In this document: in pieces, positions 2,511 through 54,600 of the stretch | How positions within the stretch are numbered: the stretch's first letter is position 1 | Layout: each line of letters opens with the position of its first letter | Assembly: GCA_017394805.1 (NCBI GenBank) | Contig: JAFPXC010000001.1 | Coordinates: 2,322 to 66,321 of the forward strand | Reading direction: 5' to 3' | Source of the DNA: Clostridia bacterium | Lineage (GTDB): Bacteria; Bacillota; Clostridia; Christensenellales; CAG-1252 | DNA: 64,000 nucleotides | The notes under the pieces: model-generated | Told to the model about the DNA's origin: nothing | Databases searched by the model: none | Seen by the model: only the letters and a program-made list of their open reading frames with translations | Translations under genes and position numbers: made by a program

Positions 2511-2583
2511 AACGATAAAGATTTTCTTGCTATTATTCGCTATTTTGGAATATAATATTCTTATTAAAATTCGAGGTGATATT

Positions 2584-3651
2584 ATGTTGAGTTTTATGTC
2601 CGCGAAAGAAGCCGCTGAAAAATGGGATATCTCTCAAAGGAGAGTTGCTATACTATGTTCCGAAAAACGTATCGACGGAGCAATGATGGTCGGCAATATG
2701 TGGATTATTCCGTCCACCGCTGAAAAACCTATTGATAAAAGAACCGTTCGTTATGAAAAAACAAAAACTGTCACACTTAAACCATTTGTAAAATGGGTCG
2801 GCGGTAAAAGTCAACTTGTCGATGAAATAGAAAAAATGTTACCGTCTGACGGTGAAAAAGTTTTGACGAAATACGCTGAACCTATGGTCGGCGGCGGCGC
2901 ATTATTTTTCAATATCCTTTCAAAGTATGATTTTGAAGAACTTTATATAAGCGATATAAACGCTGAACTTATAAATGCATACAAGGCGGTAAAAACCGAT
3001 ATCGACAACTTGATCTCAAAACTCAATGAAATGCAAATGTCGTTCTTGCCTATGGATGAAAACGGCAGAAAGTATTTTTATTATAATATTCGCGAAAAAT
3101 TTAATTCGACCATCTTATCTGCAGAAACTTCAACTGAAAAAGCCGCACAGTTTATTTTCTTGAATAAAACTTGTTTCAATGGCTTATATCGCGTAAATAG
3201 AAAAGGTCAATTTAACGTTCCTATGGGAGCATATAAAAATCCGACTATTTGTGATGATGAAAACTTGCGAAACATTCACGAAGCGTTGCAAAACGTAACG
3301 ATTGTTTGCGGAGATTATTCGCTTTCAAAATCATTCATAGATAAAGATACTTTCGTATATCTTGATCCCCCTTATCGTCCTATTTCCGAAACATCTGCAT
3401 TTACTTCATATAATTCTGAATCTTTTGATGATAATGAGCAGATACGACTTGCACAGTTTATTGATGAAATCAACAAGTTGGGAGCAAAGATTGTTTTAAG
3501 CAATTCGGATCCGAAAAACGTAAACGAAGATGACAATTTCTTTGATGATTTGTATAGAAATTATAAAATCAACCGTGTCGAAGCAAGCCGTGCAATCAAT
3601 AGCAAAGGTGATAAGCGCGGTAAAATAAACGAATTGCTCATTTGCAACTGA
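2584..3651 (+). CDS. Dam-family N6-adenine DNA methyltransferase (GATC type, DpnM / M.MboIA-like) with an N-terminal helix-turn-helix extension
   Basis: FVKWVGGKSQL, EPMVGGGALFF (AdoMet motif), NGLYRVNRKGQFNVP and YLDPPYRP (motif IV) match the Dam/DpnM family from memory. The extra N-terminus MLSFMSAKEAAEKWDISQRRVAILCSEKRIDGA looks like an excisionase/MerR-type HTH. Start chosen at ATG 2584 after GAGGTGA; the ORF-track TTG at 2527 is less likely. Confidence 0.9.
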   Translation: MLSFMSAKEAAEKWDISQRRVAILCSEKRIDGAMMVGNMWIIPSTAEKPIDKRTVRYEKTKTVTLKPFVKWVGGKSQLVDEIEKMLPSDGEKVLTKYAEPMVGGGALFFNILSKYDFEELYISDINAELINAYKAVKTDIDNLISKLNEMQMSFLPMDENGRKYFYYNIREKFNSTILSAETSTEKAAQFIFLNKTCFNGLYRVNRKGQFNVPMGAYKNPTICDDENLRNIHEALQNVTIVCGDYSLSKSFIDKDTFVYLDPPYRPISETSAFTSYNSESFDDNEQIRLAQFIDEINKLGAKIVLSNSDPKNVNEDDNFFDDLYRNYKINRVEASRAINSKGDKRGKINELLICN

Positions 3652-3661
3652 GGTGAGTCAA

Positions 3662-3904
3662 ATGACAAATGATAATTTCAGTATTTTGTTAGATTGTTTG
3701 CGGATAGTTGAAAATCCAAATATTGAACAGCAAGCAAAAGATAAGGCAATCAAAAATCTTATATGTAAAATGATAGATATGAATATGGCTTACGGCAATA
3801 TTACTAAACAAGACTTGAAGCATTTAGTTGATATTTCTAATACTGCAAAAGAATTATACGAAGTGGCTTCAGTATATTTCGCGAGTCATGACATTAGACT
3901 CTAA
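3662..3904 (+). CDS. Small hypothetical protein (80 aa) between the methylase and the endonuclease
   Basis: ORF track frame (GTG 3653). ATG 3662 is preferred because GAGGTGAG lies just upstream. No recognisable HTH, so it is not an obvious C-protein. Confidence 0.5.
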   Translation: MTNDNFSILLDCLRIVENPNIEQQAKDKAIKNLICKMIDMNMAYGNITKQDLKHLVDISNTAKELYEVASVYFASHDIRL

Positions 3905-3915
3905 GGAGAAAACAT

Positions 3916-4779
3916 ATGAAAAGAGATTTTAATGAGTGGCTTAAAACATTCAAGTCGAGCATTTGCAATTATGGCTATTATGTTGATTTCGAGAAAGTTT
4001 ACGGCAATATCGAGAATATAAAAGTTGAGTTGAATATTCTCAATTCTCTTATCGGCTCTAAAAATATAGAACATGATTTTGAAAAGCTTGTTGCAGAATA
4101 TCCGCAAGTGTTGAAATGTATTCCGATTTTGCTTGCGGTGCGTGGGCGTGAAATATATGCTATTGACGGCGATGGCGAATATCTTTTTAATTTCCATACG
4201 CTCAATTACACGACAAAAGAGTATATAATGTTTATGCAAAAGACGGGTTTGTTTGATTTAATCGCAAATCACGTTATCAATAACCTTGTCGATTATGTTA
4301 CGGGCGTAGAAGTAGGACTTGACAGTAACGGTCGCAAAAATCGCGGCGGACATTTAATGGAAAATCTTGTTGAAGATTATCTTGTAAAAGCGGGACTTAT
4401 AAAAGGTGAAACATACTTTAAGGAGATGAAACTATCCGCTATTGAAAAGAAATGGGATATTGATTTATCGGGTATATCAAATCAAGGAAAAGCCGAAAAG
4501 CGGTTTGATTTTGTTGTTAAAAAAGGTAAAACAATTTATGGCATAGAAACGAATTTTTATACCGGTGGCGGCTCAAAATTAAACGAAACTGCACGCAGTT
4601 ATAAAACAATCGCATTAGAGGCAAAACAAATCGACGATTTTTCCTTCGTGTGGCTTACCGACGGTTACGACGGTTGGAAATCTGCACGGCATAATTTGGA
4701 AGAAACTTTTGACGTGTTAGACAATATGTATTGTATAGCCGACTTGGAAAATGGCGTTATTGCTAAACTGTTCGATTGA
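3916..4779 (+). CDS. Type II restriction endonuclease, DpnII/MboI family (expected GATC specificity)
   Basis: 287 aa, the same size as R.DpnII. Long colinear similarity from memory: FNEWL...YYVDFEKVY..NI..IKVELNILNSLIGSKNIE, LVDYVTGVEVGLDSNGRKNRGG, KRFDFVVK, NFYTGGGSKLNETARSYK. AAGGAGA RBS. Confidence 0.9.
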   Translation: MKRDFNEWLKTFKSSICNYGYYVDFEKVYGNIENIKVELNILNSLIGSKNIEHDFEKLVAEYPQVLKCIPILLAVRGREIYAIDGDGEYLFNFHTLNYTTKEYIMFMQKTGLFDLIANHVINNLVDYVTGVEVGLDSNGRKNRGGHLMENLVEDYLVKAGLIKGETYFKEMKLSAIEKKWDIDLSGISNQGKAEKRFDFVVKKGKTIYGIETNFYTGGGSKLNETARSYKTIALEAKQIDDFSFVWLTDGYDGWKSARHNLEETFDVLDNMYCIADLENGVIAKLFD

Positions 4780-4780
4780 T

Positions 4781-5524
4781 ATGGCAAAAAAGATTCCTTT
4801 ACAACCCGAAGATTTCGAACTCGAAACAAATACCGTTTGGGCTTTTCCCGATCGCGGTAAATGGGCAACGCACGACGCTAAATATCGTGGAAATTGGTCA
4901 CCGTATATTCCGAGAAACGTAATTCTGCGTTATTCGAAAGAGAACGACATTGTTTTGGATCAGTTTGTCGGTGGCGGCACTACTGCCGTTGAAGCCAAAC
5001 TGACAGGCAGAAATTTTATCGGTGTTGATATTAACCCAAACGCACTTGAAATTACAAAAAGCAAATTGAATTTCGAGTGTGAATTTAATCCGACGATAAA
5101 TATTATGCAAGGCGATGCGCGCAATCTTTCGTCTATTGCCGACGATTCGATAGACCTTATTTGCACACACCCGCCTTATGCCGATATTATTCATTACAGC
5201 GAAGATATCGACGGCGATATGTCGCTTATGCCGATGAAAGATTTTTTGTTTGAAATCGGCAAAGTCGCAGAAGAATGCTATCGGGTATTGAAAAAGGATA
5301 AGTTTTGCGTTATACTTATGGGAGATATGCGCAAAAAAGGTATGGTCCAACCACTTGCTTTTGAAACGATGCGTATTTTTGAAATGGCAGGGTTCAAAAC
5401 GAAAGAAATTATAATCAAAGAACAACACAACTGCAAAGCCACGGGCTATTGGAAAACAAACAGTATAAAGTTTAATTTTCTTTTACTCGCCCACGAGTAT
5501 ATGTTTGTTTTAAAAAAGCGGTAA
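4781..5524 (+). CDS. Second DNA amino-methyltransferase of the R-M cluster (motif I before motif IV)
   Basis: LDQFVGGGTTAVEAKLTGRNFIGVDINPNA (AdoMet motif I) is followed by CTHPPYADI (catalytic xPPY). ATG 4781 lies 1 nt after the endonuclease stop (TGAtATG). The M-R-M order mirrors the MboI arrangement. Confidence 0.8.
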   Translation: MAKKIPLQPEDFELETNTVWAFPDRGKWATHDAKYRGNWSPYIPRNVILRYSKENDIVLDQFVGGGTTAVEAKLTGRNFIGVDINPNALEITKSKLNFECEFNPTINIMQGDARNLSSIADDSIDLICTHPPYADIIHYSEDIDGDMSLMPMKDFLFEIGKVAEECYRVLKKDKFCVILMGDMRKKGMVQPLAFETMRIFEMAGFKTKEIIIKEQHNCKATGYWKTNSIKFNFLLLAHEYMFVLKKR

Positions 5525-5613
5525 GTTTTGTAAAATGCAAGGTTTATTATAACCATCCACTACGCTTGATAGTAGTCGATAGTAGATAAGAAAAGTTATT
5601 AGGAGTGAAAAAA

Positions 5614-6885
5614 ATGACAACTATTGTACGCTCAATCGAAGATGCATTGCATTACGAAATATCTCAAGTACAAGTTGAAGAATATTGGAATTTGGGTGAT
5701 ACTCCAGAATTAAAAATACATAGTATTCATGCATACCCAGCAAAATTTCCGGCATTTATCGCAAGCAAAGCCATTCAGTTGGCATATAAAAGTGGAATTG
5801 AAGTGAATACGGTTTCGGATATTTTTTGCGGTTGTGGGACAGTTGCAATTGAAGCTAAACTTAATGGTGTAAATTTCTGGGGATGTGATATCAATCCCAT
5901 CGCAACCTTAATTACTAAGGCAAAAATAGGAAATTATAGTATAAGCAAATTAGAGGAACTGTATAATTTTATTCAAGATTCATATTCCAATAACAGAACC
6001 GTATATAATTACGAAGAGTCAAATGAACGTATAAGATACTGGTTCAAACAAGAGCAATTCTATGACTTAAGCAAGCTTAAAGAAGCAATTATGTCTATTC
6101 CCAAAGGAAAATATCGCACTTGTTTTGAGTGTCTGTTTTCATCCATATTAAAACCTACATCAAAATGGCTAACAAAATCTATAAAGCCACAAATTGATCC
6201 CAATAAGAATATTGCTGATGTTTGGAAAACTTTTGAACGTCAATTTAGAAAGTTTACTAAATGTGTGAGCGATATGCCTCAAACTCAATCTAATATTGAA
6301 ATTGTGACATGTAGTATTTTAACAAAAAAAAGTTTGCCAAAAGTAGATTTAATTATTACTAGTCCGCCTTATGTAACCTCATATGAGTATGCGGATTTGC
6401 ATCAACTTTCTTCCCTGTGGCTTGACTTTACGGATGATTACACTTTGCTACGGAAGGGAACGATGGGAAGCGCATATAATAGTGAAACATTTAACTATGA
6501 TATTCTAGAATTAAATGAAACGGCACGTGAAATTATATTAGAATTAAAGTCAAATAAAAAAATTTCAAAGGCAAAAATTAAGTCTATTGCGAGATACTAT
6601 ATTGATATGCAAAAGGCTACAGAGCAGTGCTATAAAATGTTGAATCCGCACGGTATGGCGTTATTTGTAATTGGAGATACGGAATACAAAGGAACGCAAA
6701 TACATAACTCTAGGCAACTTGTTGAATCTTTAATAAAAAGCGGGTTTCGGGAAGTTACTGTTTCTAAACGAAAGATTAGGAATAAAATATTAACTCCTTA
6801 TAGAGATGAAAATGGCAAGTTTACTAGCAACAAAGATGATCGGGAAATCTATCACGAGGAATTTGTAATTACTGGGAGAAAATAA
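5614..6885 (+). CDS. DNA amino-methyltransferase with SPPY catalytic motif (N4-cytosine or N6-adenine), first gene of a three-gene operon
   Basis: DIFCGCGTVAIEAKLNGVNFWGCDINPIA (motif I) and LIITSPPYVTSYEY (motif IV, nt 6361-6372). AGGAG lies 8 nt before ATG 5614. About 150 aa separate the two motifs, which may be a target-recognition region. Confidence 0.8.
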   Translation: MTTIVRSIEDALHYEISQVQVEEYWNLGDTPELKIHSIHAYPAKFPAFIASKAIQLAYKSGIEVNTVSDIFCGCGTVAIEAKLNGVNFWGCDINPIATLITKAKIGNYSISKLEELYNFIQDSYSNNRTVYNYEESNERIRYWFKQEQFYDLSKLKEAIMSIPKGKYRTCFECLFSSILKPTSKWLTKSIKPQIDPNKNIADVWKTFERQFRKFTKCVSDMPQTQSNIEIVTCSILTKKSLPKVDLIITSPPYVTSYEYADLHQLSSLWLDFTDDYTLLRKGTMGSAYNSETFNYDILELNETAREIILELKSNKKISKAKIKSIARYYIDMQKATEQCYKMLNPHGMALFVIGDTEYKGTQIHNSRQLVESLIKSGFREVTVSKRKIRNKILTPYRDENGKFTSNKDDREIYHEEFVITGRK

Positions 6886-6887
6886 CT

Positions 6888-9122
6888 ATGGCTAAAAGAG
6901 AACTTATAAAAATTGAACCGTATGCAAGATTATTAACTATGCTTAGTGAACAACTTATCAAAAATGAAGTAGTTGCTTTAACCGAGATTGTTAAAAATGC
7001 ATATGATGCAGATTCTAATTGGGTAAGAATAAGTTTTGAAAATTTTACAAGGAATTATAAGGCTCAAAAGGATTCAAGAATCATTATCGAAGATTGTGGA
7101 TGTGGTATGACTGAAGAAGTTTTGAGACATGACTTTATTAATCCCGCTTCTGCAAATAAAAAAATTAAAAAGGAACGCGGAGAAACATCTCCTAACGGAA
7201 GAATACTTCAAGGAGAAAAAGGGATTGGCCGCTTTTCGTTATTCAAATTAGGCAAAACCGTTACGGTTTATACAAAAACAAAAGATGATACTAGTCCTAG
7301 AAAATTAATTGCAGATTTCTCAAAATATGGAGATGAGTTTTTAAATGATGATGAAAGTCAAATTATGCTTTCAGAATTAGATGTGGAATTCATTTCAGAA
7401 GCCACTGAATTCAGTTTTGAGCCGCAAGTTATGCTCGCGGATGGGTATGCCAAACGGCCCAATCAAGGGACAACTATTATAGTCGAAAATTTAAATGATA
7501 GCTGGGGAAAGGCAAAAATAGAAAAACTACAAGATGAATTAATGAGTCTTATCGGGAACGATGAAGATGATTTTTCTATATATATTTTTAAAGATAATTC
7601 TTTCCTTCCTTCTGTCGTGATAACTGAGGATGACAGATTGCAGAAAATCATTGATCAGAAAGCGGTATATAAAATTGAGGGTCACTATATAGAAAAAGAG
7701 TCTGCATTTGAATTTACAATTAATGGGAAAGCATATAAAAAAGATATTTACGATAAACAAATTAACAAGTTAAGTACATACAAAAAATATAAAGTTGATA
7801 AAGGCTTCAAGGAAAATGACAGCTTGGAAAATAATAGTGCATTAACAAATACAGAATGTGGCGATTTTTCTTTTAGATTTTATGTGTTTGATTTGGAAAA
7901 GCAATATGTGCGAGAAAAATTTAGACTCCCTGTTGATGATTTGAAAATTGTAAAGAAGAATCGCGTTTATTTATATCGAGACGGTATAAGGGTATTTCCA
8001 TATGGAAGTATTAAGGATGATTGGTTGCAGGTTGATACTATTAGAGGAACGCAAAAGGCCAGTGCTATGTTTAGCAATGACCAATTAATTGGTTATGTAA
8101 ATATAACCTATAAGGATAATCCCAACTTGAAAGATAAAACTAATCGTGAAGGATTAATGGAGGTAGGCAATGCCTATCTAGATTTTGTTGCCATGATCCA
8201 GTGCTTTTTGCAATACATCAAAGTATATCATTATGATTTGGATTATGCAAACAAAAAAAATGCAATAAAGAAATTTGATAAGAATGAGCAAATAAATCTG
8301 TCTAATAGTTTTTCTAAAGTAATAAAAGAAGTAAATGATGATTCAATCAAAAAGCAACTAATTAAAATACAACAAGATGTTGAAAAACAAAGCGAGTATC
8401 AGTTAGGCCGTATTCGTGTCGTAGAGGATTTAGCAGGGATCGGTCTATCAATTCAAGCAACGCACCATGACCTAAATAATTTTATCAAGAGAAGTTATAA
8501 TGTTATTGATGACTACAGCAGAAATCTTTTGATAGACGACAATTCTTTTACAGATAAAAGCATTGTTTTAGAGAAATTAGAACGTCTGCGTGGTCTATTG
8601 TCTGCTATGGACGATCTTTTGGTAGACATGAAGAGTTTGTTTGCATCTACGCAAAGGAAATCCAAACAGATTCGCGTTGCGGAAGTATTAAATAAAGTAA
8701 TCGGGTATTATAAAAATTTATTTGTAACTAAAAACATAAATTTCGATGTTAAATCAATTGGAAACAATCCTTTAGTTATTACTATGCCCGAAGCATTATT
8801 AATGACTATCTTTATTAACATATTTGACAATGCTATTTATTGGCTTGAAGATGAAGATAAACAGGCAAAACAAATACGGATAACCATAAATTGCGATGAA
8901 CAATGTATCATTTTTTCAGATAATGGTCCGGGTATCTATCCCGAAGAGGAAGAAAAAATATTTGAAGCATTCTTTACAGGCAAAGGATTGGAAGGGCGCG
9001 GCCTTGGTTTATATATATGCAGGCAATTTATGGAACGATATGATTATCATATCCAAGTGATTAAAAACACCATTGATTGTTTGAACGGCGCTAATTTTTT
9101 GCTTGATTTTAACAAGGAGTGA
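6888..9122 (+). CDS. Dual GHKL protein: N-terminal MORC/MutL/Hsp90-like ATPase plus C-terminal histidine-kinase-like H-box + HATPase_c module
   Basis: N-terminal Bergerat motifs: EIVKNAYDAD, IIEDCGCGM, GEKGIGRFS. The middle contains VYLYRDGIRVFPYG..DDWL, which looks like a transducer. C-terminal motifs: IQATHHDLNNF (H-box-like, HH at nt 8463-8468), IFDNAIYW (N), FSDNGPGI (G1), FEAFFTGK (F) and GRGLGLYICRQ (G2). No TM segment. Starts 2 nt after the MTase stop. Confidence 0.8.
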   Translation: MAKRELIKIEPYARLLTMLSEQLIKNEVVALTEIVKNAYDADSNWVRISFENFTRNYKAQKDSRIIIEDCGCGMTEEVLRHDFINPASANKKIKKERGETSPNGRILQGEKGIGRFSLFKLGKTVTVYTKTKDDTSPRKLIADFSKYGDEFLNDDESQIMLSELDVEFISEATEFSFEPQVMLADGYAKRPNQGTTIIVENLNDSWGKAKIEKLQDELMSLIGNDEDDFSIYIFKDNSFLPSVVITEDDRLQKIIDQKAVYKIEGHYIEKESAFEFTINGKAYKKDIYDKQINKLSTYKKYKVDKGFKENDSLENNSALTNTECGDFSFRFYVFDLEKQYVREKFRLPVDDLKIVKKNRVYLYRDGIRVFPYGSIKDDWLQVDTIRGTQKASAMFSNDQLIGYVNITYKDNPNLKDKTNREGLMEVGNAYLDFVAMIQCFLQYIKVYHYDLDYANKKNAIKKFDKNEQINLSNSFSKVIKEVNDDSIKKQLIKIQQDVEKQSEYQLGRIRVVEDLAGIGLSIQATHHDLNNFIKRSYNVIDDYSRNLLIDDNSFTDKSIVLEKLERLRGLLSAMDDLLVDMKSLFASTQRKSKQIRVAEVLNKVIGYYKNLFVTKNINFDVKSIGNNPLVITMPEALLMTIFINIFDNAIYWLEDEDKQAKQIRITINCDEQCIIFSDNGPGIYPEEEEKIFEAFFTGKGLEGRGLGLYICRQFMERYDYHIQVIKNTIDCLNGANFLLDFNKE

Positions 9123-9127
9123 TACAT

Positions 9128-10405
9128 ATGGAAAACGTAAGACAAATGTTTTCAGGTGATATACTGATAATAGACGATGAAGTTAATGAAAAAGATACAG
9201 AAATTAATAGAATTAAAGAATTTTTGGAAACGAAGCGTTTTCATGTTATTGCATCTGAGTCTATTCCTACCCCAAATGAGTTAACAGACAAGAAAATTGC
9301 ATTTGTTGTATGCGACTGGAAATTTAATAATATAGATGAGAATTTGAATGCACAGAATGTTATTAGTTTTCTAAACAATATTAACACAAATCGCTTAATT
9401 CCTATTTTTATATGTACGACTGTAGAAAAAGATGAAATTGAAGAATATCTGCTTGATGAAAATGGATGTAAAAAGTATAAGAAAAATGAAGCATCTTGTG
9501 TTTTTATAGTTAAAAAGTCCGAGATTGTAGGAGATAATATTTTTAAAGTTATCAATAACTGGATTGAGAAAAATCCTTCAATTCAATATATGAAAGCTTG
9601 GGAAAAAACTATCGAAATTGCAAAAGAAAAGATGTTCAGTGATTTATATAATGAATCTGAATTCTGGCCGCTTGTACTACATCAATGTTTTAAAAATGAT
9701 GGCGATGATCCGACAGAAGAAATGGGACAATTTTTATCTCGGAATCTATTTTCTAGGGTTAGTGGCACGTATAAGTTTAAAGAATTAGAGCCAAGATCAA
9801 TGGATGATATTCAATTAAAAAACATATTAGATGGAGAAAGGACATTTTATTATCAGGAAGAAAACATATCCGATGAAACGCTTTTACATACAGGCGATAT
9901 ATTTGAATTGGCAGGAAACTTATACATTAACATTAAAAGGCAGTGTGATTTATTGCGGAATAACAGAGATGTTTATTTGCTTAAGCTTGACTCTGCTGGT
10001 AAAATTAGTGATTCTCCAATTAAATTGTCTGATAACAAAGAGAATCTGCAGATTTTAGGGAAAAACTATAATATTGCTGATAAGCCTATAGAAAAAATCA
10101 ACGACGCACTGGATAAAGCTTTTGCAAAAACTAATTCTTTTTATAACGGAAAATTTTTAGAAAAAATCAACGAAGTAATTATTCCATGTGTGTGTCATCT
10201 TGATGTCTGTAAAATTGATCTTCGTTCTTTAAGAGTTATATCAGTTGATAATTTAAAGACTGATTACAAACGCAAGGCGCGACTTTTAGAACCATATATC
10301 AGCATTGTCACGGAAAAATTTGCATCATATATTTCATCGAAAGGAACCATGCGTACACCTGAATCTTTGTTGACTCATAAGTTTATTTGTCAAGATATAG
10401 AATAA
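9128..10405 (+). CDS. Receiver (REC) domain protein with an uncharacterised ~280-aa C-terminal domain
   Basis: All five REC landmarks are present: ILIIDDE (acidic pair), AFVVCDWKF (phospho-acceptor Asp, nt 9314-9316), PIFICTT (Thr) and VFIVKKS (Lys). I cannot assign the remainder to any family. AAGGAG lies 8 nt before ATG 9128, which is 5 nt after the upstream stop. Confidence 0.75.
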   Translation: MENVRQMFSGDILIIDDEVNEKDTEINRIKEFLETKRFHVIASESIPTPNELTDKKIAFVVCDWKFNNIDENLNAQNVISFLNNINTNRLIPIFICTTVEKDEIEEYLLDENGCKKYKKNEASCVFIVKKSEIVGDNIFKVINNWIEKNPSIQYMKAWEKTIEIAKEKMFSDLYNESEFWPLVLHQCFKNDGDDPTEEMGQFLSRNLFSRVSGTYKFKELEPRSMDDIQLKNILDGERTFYYQEENISDETLLHTGDIFELAGNLYINIKRQCDLLRNNRDVYLLKLDSAGKISDSPIKLSDNKENLQILGKNYNIADKPIEKINDALDKAFAKTNSFYNGKFLEKINEVIIPCVCHLDVCKIDLRSLRVISVDNLKTDYKRKARLLEPYISIVTEKFASYISSKGTMRTPESLLTHKFICQDIE

Positions 10406-10436: not shown

Positions 10437-10480
10437 AAAGAAACGGTTATTTTGATAGAATGACCGTTTCTTTTATTTTA
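10437..10480 (+). terminator. Rho-independent terminator ending the three-gene operon
   Basis: aaagaaacggt (10437-10447) pairs with accgtttcttt (10463-10473), followed by a T-rich tail to 10480. Confidence 0.75.
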
Positions 10481-10659
10481 TCTCAAAACGGCTTGAAATA
10501 AGGGCATTTCGCCTTTTTCTTTATTGCCGTTCTTCCCCAAATACAAATCGTAGGATTATGGGGGGGTAATCGTTGGATTATGGTTTTAGTTGATACCTAC
10601 ACGCACTTTTTCGACTTTTTCTAACTTTTTTGAATTCGATCTCAATCTGACGGTTTTCG

Positions 10660-11460
10660 TCAAACGTCATCGATCGGAGCGCCGAGGAGCGCTTCGCTGA
10701 GTTTTTTTGCCTCTTCTTTTTCGCTTCGCATGTGAAACACCTTCCCCCGCAGGGAATCCATACGTTCGTCCAGTTCGGCACTGAGGTCCGCACACTTTTT
10801 GAGTTCATCCGACATTTCGCCGTCAAAGAGTGAACCCTTTTTATATCTCAGCTGATGCTCCAGACTCGCCCATGCGTCCATCGCAATGGTGCGAAGTTGT
10901 ATTTCCGCTTTCATCACGCGCTTTTCCTGCTGCAGAAAAATAGGGACGGCTACGATCATATGGAGGCTGCGGTATCCGTTCTCTTTGGGAGAAGAGATAT
11001 AATCCTTTTCCTGAATGATTTGTATATCGTCCTGCTTTTTCAACGCGTCCGCCAGCATAGAAACGTCGTCTGTAAAAGAGCAGATCACCCGTATCCCGGC
11101 AATATCGTTCAGGTTTTCCTCTATGCTGTTGATCGTGAGCGGATACCCGCGTGAGATCAGTTTATTCCTGATCGAAAGCGGATTTTTAAGTCTTGTTTTG
11201 ATCGAGCTGATCGGCTGGCGATCAAAACGGAGCGAGAATTCCTCGTTCAGCACCTTGAACTTTGTCTCGATCTCCATCATGGCGCAGTTGTAATAGGACA
11301 TGAGTTTCGCAAAGGAATAGGTTTTTTGTATCGCCGCTTCAAACATCTCCTTGCTGATCGGCATCTCGGAAAAGTCCGACCTGTCTTCCGACAAAGGCAT
11401 CAATTCATTGTTTTTCATAAACATCGTCCCCTTTACTTTTTTCGCATTAAGATTGGTCAT
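10660..11460 (-). CDS. Small alarmone synthetase (RelA/SpoT-domain (p)ppGpp synthetase, RelQ/RelP-like)
   Basis: SIKTRLK...S...K, DIAGIRVIC, GYRSLHMIV, EIQLRTIAMDAWASLEHQLRYK are the classic synthetase-domain motifs. The exact start is uncertain (11460, or ATGs near 11424/11418). Confidence 0.85.
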   Translation of the reverse strand: MTNLNAKKVKGTMFMKNNELMPLSEDRSDFSEMPISKEMFEAAIQKTYSFAKLMSYYNCAMMEIETKFKVLNEEFSLRFDRQPISSIKTRLKNPLSIRNKLISRGYPLTINSIEENLNDIAGIRVICSFTDDVSMLADALKKQDDIQIIQEKDYISSPKENGYRSLHMIVAVPIFLQQEKRVMKAEIQLRTIAMDAWASLEHQLRYKKGSLFDGEMSDELKKCADLSAELDERMDSLRGKVFHMRSEKEEAKKLSEALLGAPIDDV

Positions 11461-11803
11461 TCTTCCTTAGTTTTTTGCAGTACTGCGTACAAAGCTTATC
11501 CGTGCAGTCCGAGCATCGAAGCGCGGCGTTGGAATGCTCCCAGAAGCGTTCGGGAAACATCATAACGCAAAGTTTCCATATCAGCCACGCCGCAAACGCC
11601 ATCAAAATCAGACTTGCCGAATAAAACCCCTTGACAGCAATCATCGGCGTAAACATCATCAGATGATCCCAGTTGAAGATCCTGCAGGTCGTACAGCATC
11701 TGTTTCGCATAATGAGGCGGAAAGGGCACCACACGAGAACACAGATCAGGTCGCAGACGTAGAACGCGCAGCTGATCATAAAAAGGTGCGTGTCGTTAAG
11801 CAC
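11447..11803 (-). CDS. Cys-rich integral membrane protein, hypothetical
   Basis: ORF track. Several hydrophobic segments plus CCTTC and CSDCTDKLCTQYC clusters. Its 3' end overlaps the SAS start by 14 nt, implying an operon. The start is uncertain. Confidence 0.5.
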   Translation of the reverse strand: MLNDTHLFMISCAFYVCDLICVLVWCPFRLIMRNRCCTTCRIFNWDHLMMFTPMIAVKGFYSASLILMAFAAWLIWKLCVMMFPERFWEHSNAALRCSDCTDKLCTQYCKKLRKNDQS

Positions 11804-14366: not shown

Positions 14367-14662
14367 TATAATAGAAGCAAGTGTGCAAGCACGAGCGAAG
14401 CGAAGTATTTGCATAACGCTTGCGCCGCATTGCAACCGAACGCGGGGAGCGTAGCGACCAATCTATACGCAGTATAGATACCATTCGTAAGAATGGGCGT
14501 TCGTATGGTTGTATAATAGAAGCAAGCGTGCAAGCACGAGCGAAGCGAAGTATTTGCATAACGCTTGCGCCGCATTGCAACCGAACGCGGGGAGCGTAGC
14601 GACCAATCTATACGTAGTATAGATACCATTCGTAAGAATGGGCGTTCGTATGGTTGTATAAT
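14367..14662. repeat. Tandem direct repeat: two full 145-bp units plus the first bases of a third
   Basis: Unit starts (TATAAT) are at 14367, 14512 and 14657. The copies differ at only two positions (14382 t vs 14527 c; 14470 c vs 14615 t). Each unit contains hairpins tctatac-gNa-gtataga and ccattc-gtaa-gaatgg. Confidence 0.9.
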
Positions 14663-30052: not shown

Positions 30053-30550
30053 GTTTTAGTACCACTTTGAATCACATACGGCTAAAATGGGGGTATTGCA
30101 CGGGATTTTCGGGAACAGGTTTTAGTACCATTTTGAATCACATACTGCTAAAACTGATTGTTAGACGTACTCTTGTCTGGACAAGTTTTAGTACCATTTT
30201 GAATCACATACGGCTAAGACTTGTGCGCTATATAGTACCCCTTAGACGCAGTTATAGTACCATTTTGAATCACATACGGCTAAAACATACGTTGGGTATA
30301 AAGTTTTCGTATGCCAGTTTTAGTACCATTTTGAATCACATACGGCTAAAACTTATTTTAGCGGTGGTAGGCGCAACAACAGGTTTTAGTACCATTTTGA
30401 ATCACATACGGCTAAAACAGCGGTGCTTTGTTGATTTCCTCGGCGGTTGTTTTAGTACCATTTTGAATCACATGCGGCTAAAACGTTCGCCGGACGGCAT
30501 CTCCTCGATGCGGAGTTTTAGTACCATTTTGAATCACATACGGCTAAAAC
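30053..30550 (-). CRISPR. CRISPR array, 8 x 36-bp repeats and 7 x 30-bp spacers (type II-A)
   Basis: Repeats start at 30053, 30119, 30185, 30251, 30317, 30383, 30449 and 30515 (period 66). The + strand consensus is GTTTTAGTACCATTTTGAATCACATACGGCTAAAAC. Minus-strand transcription (crRNA repeat GTTTTAGCCGTATGTGATTCAAAATGGTACTAAAAC) is inferred from tracrRNA complementarity, cas gene direction, the AT-rich leader at 30551-30626 and the doubly mutated distal repeat at 30053. Spacers on the + strand are: gggggtattgcacgggattttcgggaacag; tgattgttagacgtactcttgtctggacaa; ttgtgcgctatatagtaccccttagacgca; atacgttgggtataaagttttcgtatgcca; ttattttagcggtggtaggcgcaacaacag; agcggtgctttgttgatttcctcggcggtt; gttcgccggacggcatctcctcgatgcgga. 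Confidence 0.95.
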
Positions 30551-48600: not shown

Positions 48601-51600
48601 CACCCTCGATTATACGGGCGTGACCTTGGACGGCGGGCTCGACGGGGACGACCTCGCGGTCACCGCCACGGGCACCTTCAACAGCAAGAACGTGGGCGAG
48701 GACAAGGCCGTAGCCATCTCCGGCCTCACCCTCGTGGGTGCGGACGCGGTCAACTACTATCTGGCCGCCGAGGGGCAACAGACCGCTTCCGTGGCCACCA
48801 TCGCCCAACAGGCCATCGTGGTGTCGGGCGTCCAAGACGCTTCCACGCGGTATCCCTATTTCAAAAAGTCCTACGACGGCACGACCAACGTCGAAAGCCT
48901 GTATTTCGTTACGAGCGACGCCGTACTTGACGGCAAAGCGGACGGCGACGATTTGACCGTTACGGTCACGGGCACGTTAGAAGACAAATACCCCGGCGAA
49001 AACAAGACCGCGGCCATTTTGTTGCAATTGAGTGGCGCCGACGTAGCCAACTACTACCTTGCCGCCGAGGGACAGCAGACCACGGTCACCGGCCTTATCG
49101 TCAACAAAAAGACGCTCATTCCGAGTGTGAGCGGCTTGACTGCCGAGGGCGCAAGGAAAGTATATAACGGTTCGATTTATCAGACGTTTGCGGGGTCCGA
49201 TTTCACGGGGATAGGCTGGTTCAGCGGCAGTGCACCCGTCGCGGGCGACGACGTCTATATCGAGAGCGTCACCGCCAAGGTCGGCAAGAACGTCGGCTCT
49301 CATCAAATCGTGGTCAATACTTCCGAGAACCCCGGTTGTATCGTATTGGGCGGCGCGGACAAGGATTATTACAACATTGCCACCCGCAATACGCAATACG
49401 GCAGTTTCTACGTCATCTATGCGACCGTCGTCGCCAGAAACTTGATCGTGACGGGGCTTACCGCGGGGGATAAGAACTACGACGGTACGATATATGCGCA
49501 AATCAATATTTCGGGCGCCGCGCTCACGGGCGTCATCGAGGGGGACGACGTCAGCCTCGTAAACGGCGGCACGTCGGGCACTTTCGCGGATGCTTCTGCG
49601 GGCGAAGACAAATTGGTCACCGTTTCGGGCTTCACCCTCGAGGGCGAGGCTGCCGGCAACTACGTCATCGCCTCGTGCCGAGCCACCGCGACCATCCACC
49701 CCAAGCAAGTGACGGTTGCGGGCATCGAGGCTGCGGATAAGACCTACGACGGCACCACCGCCGCCACCCTTAGTTACGAGGGCGTCACCCTGACGGGCAA
49801 AGTAGGCGAGGACGAACTCACCGTCACCGCCACGGGCACCTTCGCGGACAAGAACGCCGCCGAGGGCAAGACGGTCACCATTTCGGACATCACCTTCGGC
49901 GGTGCTGCGGCCTCTAACTATGTCGTCAAGTCCAACAGTCAGACCTCTGCAACCGCCACCATCAACCAAAGAGAAGTTGAGATCGAGTGGGGCAACGACG
50001 CGTTGACTTACAACGGCGTGGCGCAACAACCCACGGCAACGGTTGCCAATGCGGTGGAAGGCGACGTCGTCACGATTACGGTCAGCGGTGCGCAAACCGA
50101 TTATAGCGCGGACGCCTATACCGCCACGGTGACCGCCGTGGACGACGCCAACTACAAGTTGCCCGCCTCCGTTACGCACGAATATACCATCGCGCAATTC
50201 GAGGTGGAACTCGTTTGGAATAACGACGCGTTGACCTACGACGGTACCGCGCAACAACCCATCGCCACCGTCGGCAACAAACCCGCCGAGGGCGAGGCCG
50301 TGACCGTGACCGTTGAGGGCGCGGCGACGGATTACAGCGCGGAAGCGTACGTCGCTACGGCGACCGCGTTGAGCAGCGACAACTACAAGTTGCCCGCTTC
50401 TGCCACGCACGCGTTCACCATTGCCCAATTCGAGGTGGAACTCGTTTGGGCGAACGACGCGTTGACCTACAACGCTTCGCAACAAAAACCCATCGCCACC
50501 GTCGGCAACAAACCCGCCAACGGCGAGGCCGTGACCGTGACCGTAGAGGGCGCGGCGACGAATTACAGCGCGGAAGCGTACGTCGCTACGGCGACCGCGT
50601 TGAGTAGCGACAACTACAAGTTGCCTGCCGACGTCACGCACGAGTTCACGATCGCGCGCAAGACGGTTGTCGTCACGTACAAAGAAACGGGGCCGATGAG
50701 TTTTACCTACGGCGATCAAGGCAGTTACAACGTCTCCAACGTCGGCGGAGCGTCGCAAAACTTGGTCAATAACGTCACGGCGACGGGGCAGTATTATTGC
50801 ACGCAACTCGATATGATTGCGGATATTCAAGCGCAAAACGTCGAAACGGGCGAGATAGTACCCGGCAACGGTTTCCGTTATTACACGCCCGTCGGCACCT
50901 ATCATTTCCTCGTTACGGCCAGGAATGTCGCGCTTGCCGACAACTACGAGATCGTCGGCGCCGTCAACGACGACGATCGCGCCATTATCACCATCAATCC
51001 CGCGACGATTACCAATATCTCCATCTCCGATATAGCCACACCCACGTATGACGGCAGCAATACCGCCGTCGCCACCGTCACGGCTACGGCTACCGTGCAA
51101 CGTCCGTTTGAAAACCAAGCCTCTCTGGCCTTCGTTTACAGCGCGACCGATAGCGGCGAATATACGGCGGCAATTCCGCAGTTCGTCACGGCGGGTGACT
51201 ACACGGTGTATTACAAGGTTTCGGCAGACAATCACAATACCGCTACCGGTACGTTTACGGTAACGGTCGCCAAGAGAACGGTCGAACTCGTCACGTATTT
51301 TAACGATGACGCTACGCAAACCGCTACTTCCTATATGGGTGCGGCGCAGACCTTCCACGCGATCGTGGCCAATCCGGCCAAAGCCGACGGCGTCAATGAC
51401 GACGACGTGACCGTCACGCTTTCACTGAATGGCGGTACCGCCGCAGGCGAATACGCGGTGACGTTGAGCATTGCCAACGACAACTATGCGTTCGACAACG
51501 GCGCGGCCGCCAAGGACGTGGTCTTCTCCATCGCCAAGGCCACCTACGCCGTGACCTTCGAAGACCTCACCGTCACCTACGACGGCACCGCGAAGTCCGT

Positions 51601-54600
51601 CTATACGAGCGAATTGAGCGAGGAAATTACGGTCGAGTACGCGGGCAACGGTCAAATCAACGCGGGCGAGTACGTCGTGACCGCCCACTTCACCGTGAGC
51701 GACAACTACAATCCCATCGCTGATAAGACGGCCACCTTGACCATCAACAAGGCCACGGTCAGTATGTCTTCGGTGACGTTCAACGACGTGAGTTACACCT
51801 ACAACAACACCGAACGCACCGTTACGATAGGCGGCTCCGTACCCGCCATCGTGCGCGTAACGTACACCAATAACACGCGTACCAACGCAGGCTCGCAAGT
51901 GGCGACGGCCTCTTTCGAGGTCATCGAAGGTGCCGACAACTACAACCCCATCGCGGATATGACCGCCACCTTGACCATCAACAAAGCCAACTACAATATG
52001 TATGGCATCGAGTATCCCAACCAGGTCAAGACCTACAACGGCGAGACGCAATATCCCGACACCAAGGGCAAAGTTGCTTTGCCTACGGGTTTGGACGGCG
52101 TACAACTGACGGCTTCTTTCTCGAGCGGCGTGACCAACGTGTCCGAGGGCAACAAGGCCATCACCGTGACCTTCGTTACCGAGAGCGCCAACTACAATGC
52201 GCCCGCCTCTCGCACGGTAAATTTGCAACTCTACGCCAAGCACGTGACGGTGGTCTGGTCGAATAGCGAGCTCGTCTTCAACGGGCAGAACCAAGCGCCC
52301 ACGGCCGTCGTAGAGGATGAATTGTGCGGGGACGACGCCCTCAACGTCGTTGTGCGCGGCGAACAAATGAATTACAGCGCCAATGCCTACACCGCTACCG
52401 CCTACCTGTACAACTTGGATAATACGCCCAATACCAACTATAGTGCCGGCAGCACGGGGACGTGCAGTTTCACCATCGCCAAGCGCGTGGTCGAGTACTA
52501 CGTCACCTTGGACGGCGCGGAAGTCTCCGAGGATAATATTCACGCTACCTACGGCGTCAACTACGATACGGGTGCCTACGTCAATGGGGCGACCGTTTAC
52601 GGCCATTCGATGGACGCGGTGGTGACCAACAGCGTAGGCGCGGGTGCTCGATTGGACCACGGCGGCGACTACTACAAGACGAATGCGGGCACCTATTCCG
52701 TCCGTTTTGTTCTGGCGGGCGGCGCTGCCGCCAACTATCAATTCGCGGACGGTACTACCGAACGCGAGGTGACTTGGTACGTCGATCCTTTGACCGTCAA
52801 CGTGACCTTGGCGGGCAATACCATCACCTATGGTGATGAGGTTACTTGGCCTTATGCCACTACCAATGTTCCGTGGACGACGTTGGCCGTGGATGCGGAC
52901 AGCGTGTACGAGGTTGTGTGCGCGGCGGCGGATATCGTCAATGCAGGCGAGCGTCCCAATGCGGGCACCTATCCCATCACCGTGGTAGACAAACACAACC
53001 CAAACTTCACGGTCAACGTCACCAATACGGCGAACCTCGTCATCAACAAGCGCAACATTTCCGTGAGTTTCGTGGGCGAGTCCAAGACCTTTACCTATGG
53101 TGACGCGGACGCTTGGGAGACCGTGAAAGCATACTACGTGGACAACGATATGCAACTGGAGGTCGTCGGCGAGGATGACGCCGCGCTGGTCGAGGAAGAC
53201 GGCGGCATCGCCGACTTCGTCTACCTTGCCTTCTATACGTACAACGCCCAAGAGCAAAGCACCGTGCAAGGCAATTTAGAGGCGGAATATCTCTATGCGG
53301 GCACCTATAGATTGGTGGTGAACGACGCGAACAACGGCGACAACTACAAAGTGGACTACTTGGTCGTGCAGGGCGCTATCGTCGTCGAACAAGCGACGCT
53401 TGCGGTGAGCGTAGATGTTCCGGGCAAGACTTACGACGGCGTCGCGCTGCCCACTGTCAACTTCTTGTACAACTACGTGACCGTGACCGGTTTTGTCGGC
53501 AACGACGCGGTCGGCTCCGGCGAATTTGTCGGTTATAATCTCATTGAAAATCACTATGCTTTCAAGTACGCTTCCGCCGAGGGCAGAGCGTGGGACGCCG
53601 TTCCCGAGGAAGAGTGGACGAGCGTTGCGCCCGCCAATGCGGAGCAATACTACGTGCTGGTCGCAATCAGTGGGCTTTGTAACTACGCCGATACTGTGGC
53701 TGTCGGCACCGTCACCATCGAGCGTCGCACCGTCAACATCGTGCCCGTCTACGGTCAAGGCAAGGTCTACGGCGAAGAGGACGGCACGCTCGTCTACGAG
53801 GTGCTCAACGTCGTCGTGGGCGAGCAGGTCGTGCTTACGGGCAGTCTGGCGTACGAAGGCGACGGTGGCGCAGGCGTACACGCCTTCACGATGGGCACTT
53901 TGGCGTTGACCGAGGACGAAGTTAACGTCAACTATGTGCTTTCGCTGTCCGCCGAGGTGTACACCATCACCAAGGCGACCTTCGAGGGCGAAATTCGCTT
54001 CGAGGATGCGACCTACGTCTACGATGGCACCGCAAAGTCCCTCGCCGTCGAGGCCGAGTTGAACGACGAGATCACCGTGTCGTACGAGAATAACGATCAA
54101 GTGAACGCGGGCGAGTACGTCGTGACCGCCCACTTCATCGTGAGCGCCAACTACAACGCCATCGCGGACGTCACGGCCACCCTTACCATCAACAAGGCCG
54201 TCTACGATATGACGGGCGTGTCCTTTGCGGACGTTGTGACCGTCTACGACGGCAATGCGCACACGATCACCGTGACGGGCGAACTGCCCGCGGGCGTGAC
54301 GGTAGCGTACGCCGACAACAGCCTCGTCAACGTGGGCACTACCACCGCCACGGCGACCTTCCAAGGCGATTACGACAATTACGAAAGCGTCGCTTCTATG
54401 CTGGCCACCCTCACCGTCAGCAAAGCCACCTACGATATGTCTTCGGTGGTCTTCGCGGATGTCACGGCCACCTACGACGGCGCGGCCCATACGGCCACCG
54501 TATCGGGCGACCTGCCCGCGGGCGTCACCGTGACCTACATCAACAACAGCCTCATCAACGCGGGCGCTGTGGAGGCCATCGCCATCTTCCAAGGCGACTA

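Follow-up and report, generated by a model that had tools for sequence, protein, structure and literature searches.

In a 64,000-nt stretch of a Clostridia bacterium genome (GenBank assembly GCA_017394805.1, contig JAFPXC010000001.1, positions 2,322 to 66,321 of the forward strand; hereafter the window), three adjacent genes at 5614–10405 appear to form a self-contained module that combines a DNA methylase, a paraMORC-type histidine kinase and a receiver protein, with restriction–modification (R-M)-like logic and phosphotransfer to a toxin-fold effector. We assign this reading a probability of roughly 0.55. The trio most likely works as an R-M-like immune or addiction system that signals by phosphotransfer. 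The functional assignment draws on gene anatomy, residue conservation, synteny, genomic context, homology of the kinase to AbrB of the Ambrosia system and the predicted fold of the effector. The open reading frames (ORFs) and regulatory signals of the operon are as follows.

5605 or 5614 to 6885, + strand: gene 1 ORF, with alternative starts (ORF list)
6888 to 9122, + strand: gene 2 ORF (ORF list)
9119 or 9128 to 10405, + strand: gene 3 ORF, with alternative starts (ORF list)
10437 to 10483, + strand: intrinsic terminator at the operon end, with a 17-pair stem, a 3-nt loop and a T-rich tail
5509 to 5536, + strand: weak candidate sigma-70-like promoter, TTTAAA-16-TAAAAT, 9/12 matches

The genes are tightly packed. 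Read directly from the sequence, the gene 1/gene 2 junction GGGAGAaaaTAActATG (that is, GGGAGAaaaTAA-ct-ATG) contains a 2-nt spacer and the gene 2/gene 3 junction AAGGAGTGAtacatATG (that is, AAGGAGTGA-tacat-ATG) a 5-nt spacer. The Shine-Dalgarno site GGAGTGaaaaaaATG precedes gene 1, and each of the three genes has a site of its own, that of gene 3 overlapping the gene 2 stop codon. At the operon end, the terminator hairpin proper occupies 10437–10473 with its 17 pairs and is followed by the T-run. An earlier reading of this DNA from the letters alone (the sequence-only reading) had described three co-directional genes with these spacers, three Shine-Dalgarno sites and a terminator, all of which were seen again here, and its nucleotide positions for the HH pair of gene 2 (8463–8468), D63 of gene 3 (9314–9316) and SPPY of gene 1 (6361–6372) are arithmetically correct. 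Gene 1 possibly has its own promoter at 5509–5536, in the 89-nt gap between an upstream DpnII cassette and gene 1. This promoter is listed as a candidate only, because such matches are not more numerous in the region than expected from shuffled sequence.

Gene 2 would be the sensing and signalling component of the module, and its layout was resolved into the following parts.

6888 to 9122, + strand: gene 2, soluble dual-GHKL sensor kinase of 744 aa (Pfam HATPase_c_3 and HATPase_c)
6972 to 7325, + strand: N-terminal GHKL ATPase, residues 29–146 (PF13589, HATPase_c_3, E = 6e-19)
7962 to 8153, + strand: middle motif block YLYRDGIRVFPYG..DDW..NPNLKDKTNREGL, residues 359–422 (about 40 invariant columns in the 28-homologue alignment)
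8466 to 8468, + strand: H527, the predicted phospho-accepting histidine in the H-box ATHHD (H527-D528 invariant)
8793 to 9059, + strand: C-terminal CA domain, residues 636–724 (PF02518, HATPase_c, E = 1.5e-21)

The modules follow one another in the order paraMORC/Hsp90-type ATPase, conserved middle module, DHp and CA. In the N-terminal module, the Bergerat motifs (N37/D40/D42, D69-G71-G73 and G109-R115) are intact and invariant in 28 homologues, and a profile search matched the module to HtpG/Hsp90 N-domains. Residues 23–218 matched the NCBIfam BbrUII/HgiDII restriction-enzyme family (NF050001, E = 6.5e-19), while residues 465–725 matched NCBIfam AtoS. The motifs of the middle block also occur in Ambrosia AbrB; judging from the paraMORC literature (PMC2292703), this block probably forms the transducer/S5-like portion of that module. 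Within the H-box, H527-D528 are invariant among the 28 homologues, unlike H526, and the position of H527 starts the DHp alignment to HK853 obtained with the family profile. The kinase-family profile aligned to the DHp and CA domains of solved kinases, HK853 and LvrB among them, with chain positions 28–233 of HK853 corresponding to profile positions 528–721. The CA boxes N644/D647/N648 (N), D678-G680-G682 (G1), F692 (F) and G698-L708 (G2) are likewise invariant in the 28 homologues. Gene 2 accordingly has the H-box and the N, G1, F and G2 boxes of the kinase in a canonical two-component pair, and with both Pfam domains found and all boxes conserved, its description in the sequence-only reading as a MORC/MutL-type GHKL ATPase joined to a complete histidine-kinase core was borne out. 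More than 3,500 homologues of gene 2 were found, and the same two-domain architecture was present in all of the 120 listed with both protein ends.

The ATPase half of gene 2 resembles the BbrUII/HgiDII enzymes and paraMORC ATPases, with which it shares the GHKL module and the link to methylases in R-M contexts (Iyer, Abhiman and Aravind 2008, PMC2292703). In those proteins the ATPase is joined to nuclease domains or helicases (PMC2292703), whereas the C-terminal half of gene 2 is a histidine-kinase core, and the output of gene 2 is therefore expected to be phosphorylation rather than cleavage. Pfam, PADLOC and NCBIfam scans revealed no nuclease domain in any of the three proteins, and the cognate restriction endonuclease of a classical type II R-M system is missing from the trio.

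Gene 3 (425 aa) gave no Pfam, NCBIfam, PADLOC or PDB-sequence match, and was therefore analyzed through conservation and structure prediction, which divided it into three parts.

9128 to 9532, + strand: receiver (REC) domain, residues 1–135 (conservation and AlphaFold (AF2) model)
9536 to 9760, + strand: helical linker of four helices, residues 137–211 (AF2 secondary structure and conservation)
9815 to 10342, + strand: C-terminal effector-like domain, residues 230–405 (domain-only AF2 model)

The AF2 model of the full-length protein, built on 32 sequences, reached a pLDDT (predicted local distance difference test) of 83 and comprises a receiver fold, a four-helix linker and a beta-rich C-terminal domain. 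In a Foldseek search against PDB, the REC part of the model matched the receivers of PmrA, CpxR, ArcA and CheY. The functional residues of the receiver are D16-D17, the acceptor D63 (nt 9314–9316), T97 and K130; D16, D63 and K130 do not vary across 41 diverse homologues of gene 3, in which D17 shows at least 90% conservation, and T97 is at least 90% conserved among the 32 closer homologues. All features of the receiver in a canonical two-component pair (the acidic pair, the Asp, the Thr/Ser, the Lys and the (beta-alpha)5 fold) are present in gene 3, so that its earlier identification as a receiver from the DD, D, T and K residues is upheld by both conservation and fold. In the linker, W145 and W180 are invariant and W158 and D191 near-invariant; these four helices could act as an intramolecular inhibitor.

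The C-terminal domain was predicted as a beta-barrel followed by a terminal helix, with a pLDDT of 79 for a model of residues 225–425. All of the top 49 PDB matches of this model in Foldseek were MazF/Kid/PemK toxins, with target-normalised TM-scores of 0.49–0.75 (mostly at least 0.6) and probabilities of 0.90–1.00, and the full-length model also returned MazF toxins for its C-terminal part. The MazF-type combination of a beta-barrel with a C-terminal helix is thus seen in gene 3 on the predicted model only. Two traits in the motif alignment recall MazF sequences, namely the GD motif of the first strand and the combination of an Arg-rich strand with the terminal helix. The invariant residues of the domain are G256-D257, C273-D274, P389 and G406, with E345, R382 and R385 near-invariant, and the clade of gene 3 carries an insertion at about residues 290–340. 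The gene 3 domain differs from MazF/Kid/PemK toxins in lacking detectable sequence or profile similarity to them, in conserving D, C-D and E residues instead, and in being fused to a receiver and, in its clade, interrupted by the insertion; there is also no MazE-like antitoxin gene. The sequence-only reading had called the C-terminus unassignable, which still holds at the level of sequence and no longer holds at the level of predicted fold.

Two other assignments of this domain were considered. A PD-(D/E)xK reading of the GD...N-I-K/R...CD motifs was rejected, no restriction-endonuclease fold being among the top 50 Foldseek matches. A transcription-factor output domain was likewise rejected, as no helix-turn-helix (HTH) was found in gene 3 or in 41 relatives; the matches of the full-length model to ComE and RcsB were driven by REC and had low TM-scores. 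An ordinary transcription-factor C-terminus, an outcome that the sequence-only reading had named as counting against its proposal, was therefore not what the model returned. A member of the family (P0269, 584 aa) bears an extra C-terminal GIY-YIG nuclease at residues 443–569, a fusion that fits the receiver protein as the effector arm.

Gene 1 supplies the modification component.

5614 to 6885, + strand: gene 1, DNA amino-methyltransferase of 423 aa (PF01555, N6_N4_Mtase, E = 2e-13)

Its best PADLOC match is a Type II methyltransferase (MTase) model (E = 3e-40), and the two matches together substantiate the DNA amino-MTase assignment made before. Motif I is DIFCGCGT (residues 69–76) and motif IV is TSPPY (residues 249–253; SPPY is encoded at nt 6361–6372). 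TSPPY and the D69, G73, G75 and T76 of motif I (DxFxGxGT) are invariant in the ten trio-linked orthologues of gene 1. SPPY is seen more typically in N4-cytosine enzymes than in N6-adenine ones, and the modified base could be N4-methylcytosine (m4C) or N6-methyladenine (m6A).

The three genes travel together. In 13/13 independent non-truncated loci the trio is present in the order methylase, kinase, receiver protein, with receiver-protein identity down to 25%, which answers in the affirmative whether the genes are co-conserved outside the source genome; in one of these loci the methylase is divergent in sequence and orientation. This synteny rests on 13 loci and is not a census: a contig scan by conserved peptide patterns gave only five loci, because few peptide patterns are conserved enough. 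In distant loci, identity is mostly 40–52% for the methylase, 36–40% for the kinase and 25–28% for the receiver protein, which falls fastest of the three. Neither a constant fourth gene nor a nuclease gene was found beside the trio across the loci compared. Close relatives occur in Acetatifactor, Oscillospiraceae, Waltera and Butyrivibrio. In one distant locus (L009, 1425–3661) the kinase is divided between two ORFs, one of 355 aa for the GHKL-ATPase half and one of 374 aa for the kinase half, through either a natural split or a frameshift. A word-indexed search returned 38 relatives of gene 3, and a gene 3 profile run against 1.84 billion cluster representatives returned 802 matches at E ≤ 1e-3 (334 of them at E ≤ 1e-30), each match being a cluster at 50% identity. 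In phage records, full-length homologues of the kinase were found on two small unannotated faecal contigs only, and the system is therefore not typically phage-borne.

About 10 of the 13 trio loci lie in a defence or mobile-element context, in line with the placement of the trio beside defence genes in the sequence-only reading. One trio locus adjoins type I HsdR, AbiH and AAA_21; other neighbours include a type III R-M system with a Schlafen-type helicase, C5-methyltransferases (C5-MTases) and DUF2357/PDDEXK_7. Single copies of the trio were found on an integrative conjugative element (ICE) that carries ArdA, an antirestriction gene and HipA, on a conjugative Allorhizobium plasmid, beside a NACHT protein and toxin–antitoxin (TA) genes, and after an integrase. 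In one further setting (L004/L005, 4524–9308) the trio is inserted in a type 1 BREX operon, between pglX (PglX) and pglZ (PglZ).

The trio was then compared with described systems. The closest is Ambrosia of P. aeruginosa, which consists of AbrR-AbrA-AbrB-AbrC-AbrD and was validated against phages in 2025 (bioRxiv 10.1101/2025.09.30.679545). Its parts are the XRE regulator AbrR, the N6 methylase AbrA, the kinase AbrB, the 209-aa receiver AbrC and the HNH nuclease AbrD; every component is needed for defence, which is lost when the N-terminal GHKL Asn, the Asp of the receiver or the methylase is mutated (bioRxiv 10.1101/2025.09.30.679545). An amino-methyltransferase, a soluble HATPase_c_3/HATPase_c kinase and a receiver protein are common to both systems. 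In BLASTP with the sequences of Table S1 of the preprint, gene 2 (744 aa) proved homologous to AbrB (747 aa), with 28% identity and E = 7e-30 over residues 1–426, an alignment that takes in the YRD..PYG..DW..NPNL.D.TNREGL block, and gene 2 can be regarded as an AbrB-type kinase. The remaining components differ. AbrA is an N6_Mtase/MmeI-like enzyme with NPPF, whereas gene 1 belongs to PF01555 and has TSPPY. AbrC comprises 209 aa without helical and MazF-fold domains, whereas gene 3 comprises 425 aa with two extra domains; BLASTP between the two gave E = 0.046, confined to part of REC. A type IV-like HNH nuclease and an XRE regulator are among the five genes of Ambrosia, whereas the trio has three genes, with no HNH or XRE gene flanking it in the window or constant in related loci, and carries its putative effector as a fusion to the receiver. 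Ambrosia is reported across Gammaproteobacteria (bioRxiv 10.1101/2025.09.30.679545). An Ambrosia-like set (dual-GHKL kinase, 209-aa weak-REC protein, HNH nuclease and N-6 methylase) was observed outside this reported range, in Bacteroidota, on a Bacteroides finegoldii plasmid (NZ_OY725905.1, L020, 4974–10076).

A second described class was published in a 2021 genomics paper, which reported soluble kinases composed of HATPase_c_3, a new DHp (HEF_HK, PF19191) and HATPase_c (Bellieny-Rabelo et al., PMC8011034). Of these kinases, 91.6% are linked to a receiver-like Response_reg_2 protein (PF19192), and they are mostly linked to C5-methylases and R-M genes; descent from paraMORC proteins and a regulatory role in the control of R-M systems were proposed for them, without experiments (PMC8011034). 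The trio shares with this class the soluble HATPase_c_3 + DHp + HATPase_c kinase, the adjacent receiver-like protein without another recognised domain, the upstream DNA methylase and an R-M-rich neighbourhood, and so has the complete HEF_HK architecture of kinase layout, adjacent receiver-like gene and linked methylase. It differs in its methylase, which is an N6/N4 enzyme, the published family being mainly linked to C5-MTases. PF19191 and PF19192 gave no match at E ≤ 10 for genes 2 and 3, six relatives and 41 family members; the PF19191 model does give a weak match in an Acinetobacter kinase. At the profile level, the gene 3 family aligned end-to-end with a response-regulator (RR)-like partner protein from Campylobacter (hhalign probability 96.5%, E = 7e-10), in an alignment that covers the GD...CD and C-terminal motifs of the family, and with the partner of the Acinetobacter kinase at an hhalign probability of 88%. 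A homologue search from the Acinetobacter RR-like partner returned four proteins, none with Pfam annotation. The Campylobacter protein belongs to a set of dual-GHKL kinase, 340-aa receiver-X protein and dcm C5-methylase found on Campylobacter coli plasmid pCCDM224L (L021) and in 40 other Campylobacter plasmid records; the plasmids bearing this set are conjugative, of the pTet type, and come from C. jejuni and C. coli, and the 340-aa protein of the set is remotely homologous to gene 3.

Detocs, reportedly described by Rousset et al. in 2023, is said to be an immune phosphorelay made up of the DtcA kinase, the DtcB buffer receiver and the receiver-PNP effector DtcC. It resembles the trio in phosphorelay immunity and in the fusion of an effector domain to a receiver, and differs in lacking a methylase, in having a buffer receiver and in the unrelated sensor module of its kinase; neither a second receiver gene nor a PNP domain is present in the trio operon. 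In database scans of the trio, PADLOC returned only Type II MTase models for gene 1, and NCBIfam only generic kinase and restriction-enzyme (REase)-ATPase similarity.

The sequence-only reading had proposed that the trio fits none of the named systems and is undescribed. This part was not sustained: the class was described in 2021 (PMC8011034), Ambrosia was validated in 2025 and gene 2 is homologous to AbrB. On these comparisons, the trio falls within a broad superfamily of methylase-linked paraMORC-kinase/receiver systems, in which it is placed because of the AbrB homology and the hhalign alignments to RR-like partners and where it forms a separate branch. What is new with respect to the earlier papers is a set of three genes with another methylase family, without a nuclease and with a receiver-fused toxin-fold effector that had gone unrecognised.

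Among alternative explanations, the one that survives best, although we consider it unlikely, is a regulatory two-component system in which the kinase senses infection or DNA damage and the receiver protein is a transcription factor whose C-terminal domain binds DNA, acting on the methylase of the operon or on unlinked R-M or defence genes. In Ambrosia, operon expression is induced by infection and transcriptional control by the REC protein has been proposed (bioRxiv 10.1101/2025.09.30.679545), control of R-M systems by such pairs was a speculation of the 2021 paper (PMC8011034), and other R-M genes are nearly always beside the trio. However, neither the HTH nor any other DNA-binding output domain was found in gene 3 or its 41 relatives, the predicted C-terminal fold matches toxins and not response-regulator output domains, and AbrC is a different 209-aa protein that lacks the C-terminal domain of gene 3. 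Because the neighbouring defence genes differ in every locus, such a regulator would also have no conserved target except the operon itself.

Improbable as well, in our estimate, is a purely selfish addiction module, in which the methylase mark would serve as a long-lived antidote and loss of the element would expose unmethylated sites, activate the kinase and unleash killing by the receiver-toxin, so that the island, plasmid or ICE is stabilised. The occurrence of the trio on conjugative plasmids and ICEs and beside TA modules, the R-M-like logic and the toxin-like predicted fold of the effector domain are all as this explanation would have them. It is, however, compatible with defence, since classical R-M systems do both, and the embedding in BREX/R-M islands together with the anti-phage activity of the related Ambrosia favours immunity as the selected function. 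That the trio is simply a member of a named system, either Ambrosia or the HEF_HK/Response_reg_2 pair, with only the annotation being new, is in keeping with the AbrB homology of gene 2 and with the full-length hhalign alignments to the two RR-like partners, but is very unlikely, given the different methylase family and receiver partner and the absent HNH and XRE genes in the one case, and the unmatched PF19191/PF19192 models and a methylase other than a C5-MTase in the other.

Several observations weigh against a toxin-armed, methylation-sensing module. The MazF-like assignment is that of a predicted structure with a pLDDT of 79, for which the Foldseek E values range from 5e-3 to 0.2 and the identities from 5 to 11%. 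At the sequence level, the family profile gave no match among PDB sequences, Pfam gave none at E ≤ 10, and hhalign assigned a probability below 1% to both a PemK-like toxin and B. subtilis MazF. MazF catalytic residues could not be mapped onto the domain: its invariant D257, C273-D274, E345 and Arg differ from the known MazF catalytic Arg/Thr pair. Because the conserved residues are not this pair, the activity of the domain could differ greatly from that of MazF, or the domain could do no more than bind nucleic acid or protein. Neither gene 2 nor gene 3 is matched by a PADLOC model, and three related trio loci lie in non-defence surroundings. In Ambrosia, AbrA-methylated phage is still restricted and the authors favour transcriptional control (bioRxiv 10.1101/2025.09.30.679545). 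The trigger may thus not simply be unmethylated DNA, since methylation did not protect phage there, and this result advises caution against a simple logic in which the MTase protects self. Finally, the mechanism of the trio is inferred from sequence and models.

With these points taken into account, a phosphotransfer-signalling R-M-like module could operate as follows. In its origin, the nuclease half of a GHKL restriction enzyme would have been replaced by a DHp and CA kinase core. The SPPY methyltransferase would mark a sequence motif on resident DNA, and the N-terminal GHKL ATPase module of the kinase would be the DNA-engaging sensor of DNA state. A trigger, most simply unmodified or invading DNA, would lead to autophosphorylation of H527 and transfer of the phosphate to D63 of the receiver. 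Phosphorylation of D63 might then release or dimerise the C-terminal MazF/Kid-fold domain. Since MazF toxins are active as dimers and dimerisation is a common consequence of receiver phosphorylation, phosphorylation-induced assembly of the effector is an attractive mechanism. The effector would most likely be a toxin directed at nucleic acids, bringing growth or phage replication to a halt. More tentatively, and with odds that we place below even, the trio may constitute a complete 'restriction by signalling' immune system, in which the methylase and a restriction-enzyme-derived GHKL ATPase tell self from non-self epigenetically and the readout, in place of DNA cleavage, is a His-Asp phosphorelay that unlocks a receiver-fused MazF-fold toxin.

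In the window, the trio lies in an AT-rich stretch, with GC of 0.30–0.39 across about 1.9–10.5 kb versus 0.50–0.63 in most of the remaining window. Other features of this setting are listed below.

2527 to 3651: D12 Dam-like MTase with an extra N-terminal HTH-like region (Pfam scan)
3916 to 4779: DpnII restriction endonuclease (PF04556, E = 6e-107)
4751 to 5524: second N6_N4 MTase of the GATC cassette, its start overlapping the endonuclease gene by 29 nt
30053 to 30550: CRISPR array of about 7.5 units with the 36-nt repeat GTTTTAGTACCATTTTGAATCACATACGGCTAAAAC

The first three genes make up a complete GATC-type (DpnII/MboI-type) R-M cassette in the order M-R-M (2527–5524), directly upstream of the trio. 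The placement of the trio in AT-rich sequence after a GATC R-M system, as named in the sequence-only reading, was recovered here, as was a CRISPR array some 20 kb from the trio, where that reading had a CRISPR-Cas locus. Its designation of the stretch as a mobile island stood in part: the sequence is AT-rich, but a search for island boundaries in the window revealed no tRNA, integrase or convincing flanking direct repeats around it, and its mobile nature is only suggested. The trio itself is found in many unrelated contexts.

To the left of the AT-rich stretch, a rolling-circle Rep-like ORF (291–968, − strand; REP_ORF2-G2P, E = 7e-12) hints at an integrated small replicon or a filamentous-phage remnant, and at the left edge of the stretch a 189-aa ORF (1941–2510) had no match in Pfam, PADLOC or NCBIfam. 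Convergent with the trio is a small alarmone synthetase gene (10660–11460, − strand) with a RelA_SpoT domain, whose best NCBIfam match is a YjbM-type GTP diphosphokinase and which matched the PADLOC candidate-defence model PDC-S33 (E = 1e-23). A 118-aa ORF without a family match (11447–11803) overlaps it upstream, and the two could form a toxSAS-like module. Further along the window, a 145-bp near-perfect tandem duplication lies at 14367–14662, and two arrays of approximately 230-bp repeats (50099–50655 and 54145–54645) lie in GC-rich sequence and are possibly repeats inside a large surface-protein gene.

If the proposed module is correct, DNA modification status would be coupled to a phosphorylation signal and a built-in toxin, not to a nuclease, and the response-regulator repertoire would gain a new output domain. 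Under the more tentative 'restriction by signalling' reading, R-M logic would be tied directly to abortive infection, the receiver-fused MazF-fold would be a receiver output domain not described before, and hundreds of related receiver-X proteins would be phosphorylation-gated toxins. The proposed module could explain a large unannotated family, in which the receiver proteins make up about 800 clusters at 50% identity and the partner kinases number in the thousands, spread over Clostridia, Bacteroidota, Proteobacteria and plasmids. With only three genes, the trio would also be a simpler model for the newly validated Ambrosia-type systems, in which the sensing step is not understood, and a new methylation motif, which may be one of m4C, might be defined in gut Clostridia through gene 1.

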